64,000 nt of DNA, taken from assembly GCA_964508365.1 (NCBI GenBank), contig CAZDTP010000002.1, positions 1 to 64,000 of the forward strand, given 5' to 3'. This stretch comes from an uncultured archaeon (lineage in GTDB: Archaea; Asgardarchaeota; Lokiarchaeia; Sigyniarchaeales; SOKP01). Shown here in pieces: positions 24,764-28,780 of this stretch. How positions within the stretch are numbered: position 1 is the first letter of the stretch; each line of letters begins with the position of its first letter. A program made the position numbers and the translations under genes. Under the pieces are notes generated by a model. The model did no database searches. It worked only from the letters and a program-made list of their open reading frames with translations, and had not been told where the DNA came from.

Positions 24764-25687
24764 ATGTCTTTTAAAGAGAAATTTAGAGAGGGTATCATAT
24801 CCGCAAAAGACTTTTCGCGAGAGGATATAGATTATATCTTAAGAAAAGCTAAGGGTATGATACATAACAAAAAGGACTCAGAAATCCTAAAGGGTAAGAT
24901 TTTAGCTGCTCTATTTTTTGAACCATCCACTCGAACTCGCTTGAGTTTTGAATCTGCGATGTATCGCTTAGGTGGAAATGTTATAGGATTTCATACTAGT
25001 GATGTTTCATCTATAAAAAAAGGAGAAAGTATAGCTGACACAATTCGTACTGTAGAAAATTACAGCGATGGTATCGTAATGAGACATAATTTAGAGGGAG
25101 CAGCCAGGTTGGCAGCAAAATTCGCAAAAATACCCGTCATAAATGCCGGTTCGGGAAGTGGCGAGCATCCGACTCAAGCACTATTAGATTTATTAACAAT
25201 TACTGAAGAGGGTCATAATTTAGACGATTTAAATATCGGAATAATGGGGGATCTGAAATATGGAAGGACGGTACATTCATTGTCCATAATGCTTTCAAAT
25301 TACGACGCAAATATCTATTTTATTAGCCCTAGAGACTTGATGTTGCGTAAAAGAGACAAGGACTTCTTACAACAACGACACGTAAAATACAAAGAAATAG
25401 AAAAATATAGAGATATATTACATATTTTAGATATTCTCTATGTCACGAGAATTCAGAAAGAAAGGTTTTCTGATATCGAAGAGTATGAAAGAGTTAAAGA
25501 TTTCTATGTATTCACGAAAAAGGATTTGGAAGAAACAAAAGACGTTTTCAAAATTATGCATCCTTTACCAAGGATTACAGAAATTTCACCTGAAATCGAT
25601 GGTTCTCCTAAATCGATTTATTTCAAACAAACTTATTATGGAATACCTATGAGAAAGGCGATCTTAGCAGAATTATTATCGGACTAA
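24764..25687 (+). CDS. pyrB: Aspartate carbamoyltransferase catalytic chain
   Basis: FEPSTRTRLSF, HPTQALLD, GDLKYGRTVHS, MHPLPR. Confidence 0.97.
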   Translation: MSFKEKFREGIISAKDFSREDIDYILRKAKGMIHNKKDSEILKGKILAALFFEPSTRTRLSFESAMYRLGGNVIGFHTSDVSSIKKGESIADTIRTVENYSDGIVMRHNLEGAARLAAKFAKIPVINAGSGSGEHPTQALLDLLTITEEGHNLDDLNIGIMGDLKYGRTVHSLSIMLSNYDANIYFISPRDLMLRKRDKDFLQQRHVKYKEIEKYRDILHILDILYVTRIQKERFSDIEEYERVKDFYVFTKKDLEETKDVFKIMHPLPRITEISPEIDGSPKSIYFKQTYYGIPMRKAILAELLSD

Positions 25688-25694
25688 TCTTACA

Positions 25695-27692
25695 TTATTC
25701 TATTTTTAATTGAAACATGTTTACTTTTGAAGAAGATAATTGTGCCATTAATTCTTCTATAGGATTGTTATTTACATTACATGTAAAAACACTACCTCCA
25801 TCAACAATACCTTCAAAATTTTTATATATTTGAACTTTTTTTTTTAATGATAATTTTGAATCCCTTCGTATCATATTTATACAATATTTGTTAGTGCCAT
25901 TGCCCATATGATCAATACTTCTACACCAATGTTTAGAGAGATAATCACCGTTATGAGGTTGAGTAAGGATATAGTTTTCGTTGTGGTCTCTATTAATTTC
26001 GTTAATTATATCTTTCATAAAAATTAATAAATTATAAGCAAACGATTCGCTGTTTTCTATCCTATCGATCTCCATACCGCAATGAGTTTTTATGGCTTCA
26101 TTTAATCCGAAAAAGCTAACCGATTTTAATGAGTTATCTATCCAACTAAGGGCATCTGGTTTAATGAAATCAGATATAATTCTATTCCATTGCTTTGAAG
26201 TAGATAACTTTTTATTTATTAACTCTTTTTTATGAGCAAAAAGTTCAAATACGGAACTAAGCTTATCTTGAACATTTTCAAAAAAAAGAGAATCATTCTG
26301 TTTAGAATTATCGGCAATTTTATGTAAATTTATTAAAATTTTATCTAAAACAACATTACTTTTGAGTTCTCCTTTAGTATTTTTCTTATTCACATTTATT
26401 AAAGTAGAATTTAGCAAGTTTAGTTTATTATTTAAAGAGAATATTATATCGTTAGAATGAGGTGAGTATATGGTTTTCCTTAAGAATTCATATCCAGACT
26501 TATTATTGAGCAGTGATGAGTAATCAAATAAAATCAGAGGACATGTAGGTCCATCATTCTGATCAATCTGATCAAATAATTTACCCAAAAAGTAAGGGAT
26601 AAATGGAATTTGAAAATTCAAGTTATTAAAATCTTTAAATTCATCTGAAGAAGAGATTTCTAAAGAGAGATGAGGCTTTTGGTCATAGATTCTATTTGAA
26701 TGATCCAAAACCTCTGAGTTAAGGAAATTAATAAGGGCTTCTGAACTCTCGTTGGAACTTATGCTCTTTAATAAAAAGTCTGAAAAATTACCTAGTAGAA
26801 TATCTTCAGACACATATGGCTTTATCTTACCCACCACATCAAAGAAGTTAGAACATAGTTTAATCAATTCAATTGAATTGTCTAATTTATTAATGTCCAC
26901 TAATTTCCGTTTTGAAAGATAAGATACGATTGAATTTGAGTCTAGATAGAAGCCCAATGGTCTTAAACTCCAGTAGTTTAAGTTCAGTAAAACTAATTCT
27001 CCAGACAAATACATGTCCGCTAAATTCTTTGGAAGCAAGTTTAGTAATAAATATTGCTCTGACACCTCTGATCCGAGTTTAAAAAGAAGCTGTTCGGGAT
27101 TAATTCTGTTATTATCAAAATATCTAGAAACCTCATAAGGAGGAGTACCTAATCGAGTCAACCTATGTCTTATCTCTTCTTGACCATTTTCCAATAGAAT
27201 TCCGTTTATATATTCCCTCATTAAAGGAGCTGTTAAATATTCTATATTCGTTTTAGATAAGCGTTCTTCCACTTCTTTTGAAATCTGTTTTGCTAAATGC
27301 GAATCCACTTGACCTTCCTTAATTAGATAATTTTCGATTTTACTCGAATCAAATGGTTCTTTTGAATATCTAGAGGTTCTTATCATTATTGTTTTGTTTT
27401 TATCATTTAGAATCTTTTCAATAGAGATAATATTCTTGAGAATCTGCCCACCCAAGGCACTCAAAACATATCCATCATCGGTGGTAGACATTAAATTGCT
27501 GTTTTTCAGCGCTTTTAAATGAAATGAAAAATTGACGGAATTTGGATTACTTCCTAAAACTTCTTTTTGAAGGATAGAATAGGGTAAAGGATTACTACTA
27601 AGACTTAATTTCTTTAAAATATCAATTCTTATCTTTTGACCTAATGTTTTAAGCTGCTTTTCTAAAACATCGTGATTTTTGTCGGAATTCAA
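25695..27692 (-). CDS. ArsR-type winged HTH + ATP-cone + degenerate class III RNR (NrdD)-like domain fusion
   Basis: N-terminal HTH (RIDIL...FSFHLKAL...Y.LS..G); ATP cone (IRTS...EPFD.SKI...LTAPLMRE); NrdD-like blocks; lacks MGCR and the C-terminal glycyl-radical domain. Confidence 0.82.
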   Translation of the reverse strand: MNSDKNHDVLEKQLKTLGQKIRIDILKKLSLSSNPLPYSILQKEVLGSNPNSVNFSFHLKALKNSNLMSTTDDGYVLSALGGQILKNIISIEKILNDKNKTIMIRTSRYSKEPFDSSKIENYLIKEGQVDSHLAKQISKEVEERLSKTNIEYLTAPLMREYINGILLENGQEEIRHRLTRLGTPPYEVSRYFDNNRINPEQLLFKLGSEVSEQYLLLNLLPKNLADMYLSGELVLLNLNYWSLRPLGFYLDSNSIVSYLSKRKLVDINKLDNSIELIKLCSNFFDVVGKIKPYVSEDILLGNFSDFLLKSISSNESSEALINFLNSEVLDHSNRIYDQKPHLSLEISSSDEFKDFNNLNFQIPFIPYFLGKLFDQIDQNDGPTCPLILFDYSSLLNNKSGYEFLRKTIYSPHSNDIIFSLNNKLNLLNSTLINVNKKNTKGELKSNVVLDKILINLHKIADNSKQNDSLFFENVQDKLSSVFELFAHKKELINKKLSTSKQWNRIISDFIKPDALSWIDNSLKSVSFFGLNEAIKTHCGMEIDRIENSESFAYNLLIFMKDIINEINRDHNENYILTQPHNGDYLSKHWCRSIDHMGNGTNKYCINMIRRDSKLSLKKKVQIYKNFEGIVDGGSVFTCNVNNNPIEELMAQLSSSKVNMFQLKIE

Positions 27693-28101
27693 TTTAAGTT
27701 TAAGTCGTCATAAAGAACATTAATTCTACTTAACTAAATAATATACTTAAGAGCTATATAATAATTAGGAATTTTGTTAACCCAAAGTAAGATTTGATAT
27801 ATGTGGGTGATATCGCACGATTTACTTCTTAGTTTTTTAAAAGTTCTTTTTTAATATTTTAAGTTATAAAGCGTATTCAATTAAATTAATTTCCTTTCAA
27901 AGATTTGAGTTCACATTTAATATATTGTTCCATTAGCTTAAAATAATTTAATCTAATTCTTTATTACATGAATTACCGATAAACTAAAATGAGATGGATT
28001 AAATTCATTATCTAGTCCAGTCAGTTTAATAACTAAAGTAGTTTAAGTAAACAAGAAAATTTATAGCGAGATTTGAATTAGGGTTCTAAATTAGATTTCC
28101 C

Positions 28102-28335
28102 TTAACGAGCAGAAACTGCTATTCTTTCAATTTCTTCCTTTCTTTTTATAGCCCTTGATTCTTGACTATCATCTGCTGCTAATATTAGTTCTTGAGCCAA
28201 ATTAGTTGCAAATTGTTTCTCGTTTGAATGTGATCTTGCGCCAATAGTTTGGATTAAATACTTAATCGCTAAATCTACTCGACGTTGTGGACATATATCT
28301 ACAGCGGATGCATAGCATATACCACCCATCGCTAT
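28102..28335 (-). pseudogene. Diverged duplicate of the 3' third of rps7 (75-codon open frame)
   Basis: 54/75 aa identical to the C-terminus of the rps7 at 28795-29022 (counted by hand). Confidence 0.9.
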
Positions 28336-28382
28336 TTTCCAAAAATATAAATATCAGTAATAACATAAATAGAGTAGTTTTT

Positions 28383-28780
28383 ATGAATTCAAAGAAAATC
28401 CGTAAAGTCATATTGAAAACTCTTTGGTCGCTTCGACTAAGTTTGAATTTAAGAACTCTTTTAAAGTTAGCTGTAAAAGAAGAATTAAGTAGGTTATATG
28501 ACCTTGGACTGAAGAAGGAATGGAATACGCTCTACCATCGATTTCATAAGTCTACTTTAGAATGTGGCATGGGGGCTGGTTGCGTTTCATTTCAAGAATT
28601 AAAAAAACAAGGATTCGATCCTCAAGATCGTCCAATCCCTCAGGATCTTGTCTGGTACCTTGGCTGGAAAAATGGTATTGCGAAAACTGTTTTGAAGTAA
28701 GTAAATTAGCTGAAATAACTCATAAGGATTTTGATGATCCTGTAACTAGAGAGTGGGTTAAAAAAGAGTTTGGAATTTAA
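28383..28780 (+). pseudogene. Frameshifted small Cys-motif protein (about 132 aa if one G is restored at about 28655)
   Basis: ORFs 28287..28700 and 28562..28780 join as ...PQDLVW/VPWLEKWYCENCF... if GTCTGGTACC was GTCTGGGTACC. Confidence 0.6.

Follow-up and report, generated by a model that had tools for sequence, protein, structure and literature searches.

A stretch of 64,000 nucleotides (nt) from an uncultured Asgard archaeon (contig CAZDTP010000002.1, here called the window) carries on its minus strand a gene for a protein of 665 amino acids (aa), in which an ArsR-type winged helix-turn-helix (wHTH) and an ATP-cone precede the barrel of a class III ribonucleotide reductase (RNR), NrdD, that has lost its catalytic residues. 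The gene is conserved among related species, stands in a genome with working RNRs, and shares with their genes, nrdD and nrdJ, a 9-nt box of consensus CCGA(C/T)AAAA at a fixed position. From these comparisons of sequence we consider it reasonably probable that the three genes form an autoregulated RNR regulon, in which the wHTH and ATP-cone protein built on a dead NrdD would be the regulator and a functional analogue of NrdR. The box lies at a like position relative to the promoter in both RNR genes and in this gene, and this is most simply explained by one regulon that includes its regulator. As the gene carries the box common to both working reductase genes, its product is likely to be a nucleotide-sensing switch of archaea, so far undescribed, that acts on the supply of DNA precursors. 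The gene and its domains lie at the following positions of the window:

25695..27692 (-), whole coding sequence: wHTH, ATP-cone and catalytically dead NrdD barrel; 665 aa, TTG start
27399..27671 (-), ArsR/SmtB-type wHTH, aa 8-98, with a long C-terminal helix; Pfam DUF7347 and structure model
27159..27395 (-), ATP-cone, aa 100-178; Pfam
25698..27125 (-), NrdD-like alpha/beta barrel without Zn ribbon or glycyl-radical domain, aa 190-665; AlphaFold2 model and Foldseek

The box of the candidate regulator gene itself was found by comparing orthologues from the genus, together with a predicted promoter:

27677..27685 (-), CCGACAAAA box, codons 3-6; orthologue comparison
27755..27771 (-), promoter ttcctaattattatata, resembling a transcription factor B recognition element and TATA box, about 70 nt 5' of the start codon; predicted from sequence
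27729..27738 (-), tttagttaag element near the predicted transcription start; conserved among orthologues

The predicted promoter is kept in the upstream regions of all 23 orthologues, and in 23 of 23 loci the box follows the TATA by 76-78 nt. CGAC(A/G)AAA is found at codons 3-6 in every one of them, mostly as (T/G)CCGACAAAA, and it runs against codon bias: the Asp codon there is always GAC, yet elsewhere in these genes GAC accounts for only 22% of the Asp codons, and the codons before it, TCC or GCC, for only 9% of the Ser and 13% of the Ala codons. The leader of nrdD contains the same string in 19 of 19 loci, 69-77 nt 5' of the ATG and always 71 nt past TTTATAT. When this leader was aligned from 14 species, the box and a AACGATAA block at the predicted start site were the sole conserved islands. 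In the nrdJ leader, GCCGATAAAATT is present in 13 of the 18 genus loci, and its distance from the TATA is exactly 71 nt in the 11 loci that match the TATA pattern. The initial annotation had pointed to a 409-bp AT-rich leader that could hold an autoregulatory operator. This leader is real (27693-28101, 24% G+C), but the candidate operator is not spread over it; the box lies inside the coding sequence, about 45 nt past the predicted transcription start. The analogy with NrdR drawn in the same annotation gains independent support from the conserved box common to nrdD, nrdJ and the gene itself.

Related signals were detected in the sister family of the same order (f2). The nrdJ leaders of three f2 genomes contain a CCGA-N6-TCGG palindrome 55-68 nt 5' of the ATG with differing spacers (the genomes hold 8, 35 and 26 such sites in total). 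In one of the three the palindrome recurs about 160 nt 5' of the genome's own wHTH homologue, and another f2 genome has TGTCG-aata-CGACAAAAAT and CCGACAAAAAT upstream of its homologue. An RNA element in place of a DNA box was rejected, as Rfam gave no match in the nrdD leader or the leader of the gene itself, and RNAalifold gave no pair in 14 nrdD leaders. Some species have left arms with apparent pairing to the box, and these arms show no conservation. Separately, an AACG(A/T)TAA block was seen to be invariant about 25 nt past the nrdD TATA, at the predicted transcription start, in 18 loci (L046-L063).

In the mechanism that we propose, the ArsR-type winged helix would bind DNA, and its target would be CCGA(C/T)AAAA, which nrdD, nrdJ and the regulator gene each carry some 40-45 nt past their predicted transcription start. 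The ATP-cone would bind ATP or dATP and so sense the state of this pair, and the dead barrel would act as a scaffold for dimerisation and signal transmission, possibly still binding deoxyribonucleoside triphosphate (dNTP) effectors. Nucleotide-dependent occupancy of the box, whether it would repress or activate, would tune both RNR expression and the level of the regulator itself, as NrdR does in bacteria.

Several observations weigh against this autoregulated regulon. In the whole genome CCGACAAAA occurs 20 times where about 24 sites are expected, and a genome-wide over-representation of the box was rejected on these counts. The form with either C or T occurs at 70 sites compared to 51 expected. 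The only significant signal, which itself speaks for the regulon, is the intergenic enrichment of the C form, with 12 of the 20 sites between genes against 9.2% for 19 control words of the same composition (binomial tail 2e-8). Among the further points against it, the box of the regulator gene lies within the coding sequence, where its conservation is in part due to constraint on the protein residues S-D-K-N. Palindromes are the usual targets of ArsR-type dimers, and the box of the genus is a single copy with no clear inverted partner. Its position at +40 to +45 is unusual for an archaeal repressor. The residues of the ATP-cone depart from the KRDG consensus, with RTS here, the RT of which is shared by the NrdD of the same genome, and six of the seven distant relatives that were checked do not adjoin RNR genes. 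Finally, the box may serve another factor, given that it is found near orc1/cdc6 and that several of its sites lie between convergent genes.

The box near orc1/cdc6, CCGACAAAAAA, lies about 200 nt upstream of the gene (C49:9080, L078/L132), and it is exact in 11 of 18 genus loci, with near variants in 5 more. It lends some weight to the explanation that the protein is indeed a nucleotide-sensing, DNA-binding regulator, but one of other targets, pyrB or orc1/cdc6, while another factor reads CCGACAAAA. For pyrB this would fit the conserved linkage of the two genes, which are convergent in 23 genus loci and lie on the same strand in f2, with the homologue downstream. However, no box was found upstream of pyrB, the linkage is lost outside the order, and the position of the box relative to the promoter is alike in both RNR genes and the regulator gene. 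We therefore regard this explanation as possible, although rather unlikely. A wider proposal, which we put forward as speculation, extends the RNR regulon: the protein could be a master switch of an Asgard DNA-synthesis regulon, which would read ATP/dATP through a retired RNR and act through CCGACAAAA on both reductases, itself and Orc1/Cdc6. If true, it would parallel the eukaryotic G1/S programme, in which the winged-helix factors E2F/DP and MBF co-regulate RNR and CDC6.

Beside these sites, a strongly conserved ACTCTGTATT element was observed that adjoins a TATA-like box about 60 nt 5' of the orc1/cdc6 start. Two outward-facing CCGACAAAA boxes were also seen between open reading frames (ORFs) of 93 aa and 342 aa (C16:9444 and 9656; L076). 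The ORFs beside box sites on contigs C16, C5 and C50 gave no Pfam or NCBIfam match.

The three-part architecture of the protein, which the initial annotation had read from motif strings that were all found in the translation, was borne out by Pfam domains and structure models. DUF7347, a wHTH domain, matched at aa 14-87 (E 1.7e-9, 38.2 bits against a gathering threshold of 27.6), the ATP-cone PF03477 at aa 103-174 (26.3 bits, cut-off 25.8), and NRDD in part, with aa 452-644 corresponding to profile positions 282-480 of 562 (E 6e-14, 52 bits). The NrdD equivalog TIGR02487 stayed below its threshold (45.2 bits, cut-off 326.35), as did the ArsR family model NF033788 (17.5 bits, cut-off 55). An AlphaFold2 model was built from an alignment of 99 sequences (mean predicted local distance difference test score, pLDDT, 85.8; predicted template modelling score 0.78). 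The top 36 PDB matches of this model in Foldseek were all class III RNRs (E 1e-17 to 1e-10), including those of P. copri (8P2C), S. thermophilus (9DCA), T. maritima (4CON) and T4 (1H79), and class I RNR structures appeared only from E 1e-6. The model thus predicts the ATP-cone and the ten-stranded alpha/beta barrel fold of NrdD. A separate model of aa 1-100 (pLDDT 93.1) predicts a winged-helix fold with the C-terminal dimerisation helix of the ArsR/SmtB type, and it matches ArsR, DNA-bound NolR, HlyU, CzrA, BigR, SmtB and CadC with template modelling scores of 0.6-0.73. The recognition helix has the classic ArsR pattern N-x-S-F/Y-H-L. The N terminus is a wHTH without a Cys cluster, and no Zn ribbon of the NrdR type is found there.

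The catalytic residues were mapped by multiple alignment with the NrdD of the same genome and with P0234, another true NrdD. Two sites that were lost could be placed in the gene:

26952..26954 (-), codon of G247, which aligns with the first active-site Cys; the alignment has RPFC in the NrdD of the genome and RPLG here
26400..26417 (-), finger-loop remnant LLNSTL, aa 426-431; alignments place T430 where NrdD has its thiyl-radical Cys

In nearly all of the 60 members displayed the first of these positions is occupied by Gly, Ser, Ala, Asn or Glu, with Cys in one. Between aa 385 and 537 no Cys is found, and the lack of a finger-loop Cys and of a glycyl loop, noted from the sequence at first, was confirmed by the alignments and the model. 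The protein stops 29 aa past GGSVF, and both the Zn ribbon and the RxxGY glycyl-radical loop are absent. Almost all members of the subfamily of 630-667 aa (tier 1) stop there too, and one is about 40 aa longer, also without Zn ribbon or glycyl loop. A gap of seven residues stands opposite NENAN of the NrdD of the genome, in the NxN flap region described for NrdD (PMC11226230). In BLASTP the identity to this NrdD was 31% over the cone and the N-terminal barrel and 23% over the C-terminal half. A frameshifted Zn and Gly tail downstream was rejected, since pyrB ends 7 bp away and tblastn with three NrdD-type tails detected no remnant near the gene. Judged by these alignments, the radical chemistry of the enzyme is lost, with both active-site Cys, the Zn ribbon and the glycyl-radical tail.

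Members of the family are named anaerobic ribonucleoside-triphosphate reductase in databases, and this name and the retained barrel fold are what speaks for a protein that is still an RNR, or another radical enzyme with unrecognised chemistry. We consider this very improbable, because the whole subfamily is devoid of both Cys, of the Zn site and of the glycyl loop, the former active-site region evolves fastest, and the score against the NrdD equivalog is far below its cut-off. When the window protein was compared per domain with tier-1 representatives, the identity was 0.65 for the ATP-cone, 0.53 for the wHTH and 0.40-0.45 for the outer barrel, and it was lowest, 0.21, at aa 301-445, the home of the former finger loop. 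In tier 2 the identity of the ATP-cone was 0.47. The finger-loop region is the most constrained part of a working RNR and the least constrained here, where the ATP-cone and then the wHTH are conserved best. A protein that senses a ligand and binds DNA would be expected to show this pattern.

Intact NrdD and NrdJ, the presence of which elsewhere in the genome had been raised as a question, were both found. The genuine NrdD on contig C18 has 712 aa with RPFC, the finger loop QCCRKF, CPHC...CPQC and RITGY, and the class II NrdJ on contig C4 has 744 aa with ATP-cone, RNR_Alpha, RNR-II insertion and barrel. A MazG-type nucleotide pyrophosphohydrolase of 104 aa is encoded directly 3' of nrdD (C18, L001:1122-1436, -). 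NrdR was not detected in the genome, and the protein itself gave no match to the NrdR model TIGR00244. In f2, several genomes, two of them closed, had no true NrdD match (P0121 at E<=1e-30; Pfam NRDD in five), and these retain NrdJ and the wHTH homologue.

With working reductases alongside, the protein could instead be a non-catalytic partner of NrdD or NrdJ, that is, a pseudo-subunit with a role in heterodimers or in the buffering of (d)NTPs, which would use its wHTH for protein contacts rather than for specific DNA binding. In eukaryotes, RNR subunits are known to have pseudo-enzyme partners, and here the NrdD barrel is retained and moderately conserved together with the N-terminal helices of the region for dimerisation and the specificity site. 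Against such a partner, the conservation of the wHTH is second only to that of the ATP-cone, its recognition helix follows the classic ArsR pattern, and the f2 genomes that lack an NrdD match still keep the homologue. We hold this alternative to be improbable.

Three further observations were made on the RNR-related genes. A further NrdD paralogue, with frames of about 600-636 aa, was found in a subset of the genus only (G007, G013, G016, G018-G020 and G022-G024) and not in the source genome; compared to NrdD its identity is 51-55% over aa 20-385 and 35-42% over aa 413-650. In some genomes the RNR match is split in two blocks within open frames of 931-1251 aa, for nrdD in G014 and G015 and for nrdJ in G005, G009, G017, G021 and G023, and these are probably intein insertions. 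A protein of 306 aa that resembles 2-phosphoglycerate kinase carries the fourth ATP-cone of the genome (C60:9917-10837; L164:1459-2379; NF003259, 316 bits).

The homologues of the regulator are full length and single copy, and their distribution is conserved rather than patchy. Exactly one copy was found in 23 of the 24 species of the genus and in 64 of 68 sampled genomes of the family. The frame is uninterrupted in nearly all of them, and three listed matches from another genus have a single in-frame TAA. Identity goes down to 44%, and position and length are fixed. A very divergent barrel might be taken as the mark of a decaying paralogue without function. Such decay is contradicted by a gene that is full length, single copy, fixed in position and length and conserved, with an open frame in dozens of species and near-universal presence in the family, and we give it practically no credence.

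A word-indexed search gave 477 proteins, of which the best 120 are nearly all full length (a few are shorter, partial sequences) with 59-92% identity. Most of the named ones among these 120 come from metagenome-assembled genomes (MAGs) of Promethearchaeota or Lokiarchaeota, and one is labelled bacterial (Nanopelagicaceae); they are called NrdD, hypothetical protein or DUF7347 protein. In a profile search over 1.84 billion cluster representatives there were 834 hits at E<=1e-3 and 202 at E<=1e-30. These extend the family to relatives of 700-890 aa, which share the order wHTH, ATP-cone and NrdD, and most of which retain CxxC...CxxC and match the NRDD profile over its full length (113-278 bits). 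All of the inspected forms that bear the wHTH (DUF7347 region) lack the finger-loop Cys, and only one of them, P0186, retains an RxxGY-like motif. Of two hits in which no wHTH could be detected, P0234 has MGCR and RITGY and is a true NrdD, and P0193 retains a Cys in the loop. The superfamily comes from Lokiarchaeota, Jord-/Freyarchaeota, Thorarchaeota and MAGs labelled Nitrososphaerota, and its members are annotated as anaerobic ribonucleoside-triphosphate reductase, ArsR family regulator or helix-turn-helix regulator. Such annotations bear out the statement, in the initial annotation, that HTH-NrdD-like fusions are listed as RNRs in other Asgard and TACK genomes. Of 300 genomes sampled across the phylum, 86 have the protein; with this query it was near-universal in some families and not found in others. 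For one relative labelled Nitrososphaerota, a class II RNR gene follows on the same strand after 237 bp. A second long protein of the source genome with an N-terminal DUF7347 was also observed (C2:102390-102602, in an open frame of 852 aa), which the regulator query had missed.

Naming these proteins anaerobic ribonucleoside-triphosphate reductase is a systematic annotation error, through which a genome can be credited with a class III RNR that it lacks, and with the anaerobic dNTP supply that would follow from it. NrdR is rare in archaea (PMC9110341). This large family, conserved in Asgard and other archaea, could supply the regulator still missing for archaeal RNR genes, and it clearly illustrates how an enzyme may be reused as a sensor. 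No paper was found on DUF7347 or on a regulator of wHTH, ATP-cone and NrdD, and a survey of RNR insertions and extensions does not mention HTH fusions. New here is also the 9-nt box itself, which provides a concrete sequence for binding assays.

Compared to NrdR, the protein has in common an ATP-cone coupled to a DNA-binding domain, with RNR genes and its own gene as predicted targets. NrdR has a Zn ribbon, whereas an ArsR-type wHTH and a dead NrdD barrel of 470 aa are found here; there is no homology over the whole protein, and the candidate box shows no relation to the boxes of NrdR, nor does it overlap the promoter as they do, being placed 3' of the start site. With class III NrdD it shares the ATP-cone and the ten-stranded barrel fold, but it lacks the thiyl Cys, the second Cys, the Zn ribbon and the glycyl-radical loop, its flap is shortened and a wHTH has been added at the N terminus. 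Proteins of the ArsR/SmtB type (ArsR 6J05, NolR 4OMY, CzrA 1R1U, SmtB 1R22) resemble the predicted fold of aa 1-98 including the final long helix, but the sensor here would be the fused ATP-cone and barrel and not a metal site in the wHTH. The wider superfamily has the same three-part architecture, and most of its members keep the Zn ribbon and a degenerate glycyl-loop region, whereas the subfamily of the window protein has deleted the whole tail.

As had been described at first, the gene stands tail-to-tail with pyrB (24764-25687, +), with 7 bp between pyrB and the stop codon, and this arrangement is conserved within the order. The synteny of S7, regulator gene and convergent pyrB was found in 23 of 23 genus loci, in f2 the homologue lies directly 3' of pyrB on the same strand, and in the neighbourhoods of distant relatives outside the order the linkage to pyrB is absent. 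The start codon (27690-27692 in the window) is TTG or GTG in 21 of the 23 orthologues and never ATG; in two loci there is none at that position. The gene pyrI, for the regulatory chain of aspartate transcarbamoylase, lies apart from pyrB on contig C45 (15871-16146), and with pyrI present there its role as a missing partner was rejected.

The 409-bp leader is specific to the source genome, since rps7 directly precedes the gene in all 22 other genus loci. In the source genome an insertion, which accounts for most of the leader, separates the intact rps7 from the regulator gene and comprises a fragment of rps7 and an ORF of 137 aa. The fragment is a diverged second copy of the last 75 codons (28102-28329, -; Pfam Ribosomal_S7, E 1e-16), and the ORF, near it on the opposite strand (window 28102-28700), gave no Pfam match. 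The other neighbours are informational genes: one flank of the locus encodes L44e, TFS, PCNA and PriL, and the other the S7 fragment, S7, S12 and Rpo subunits.

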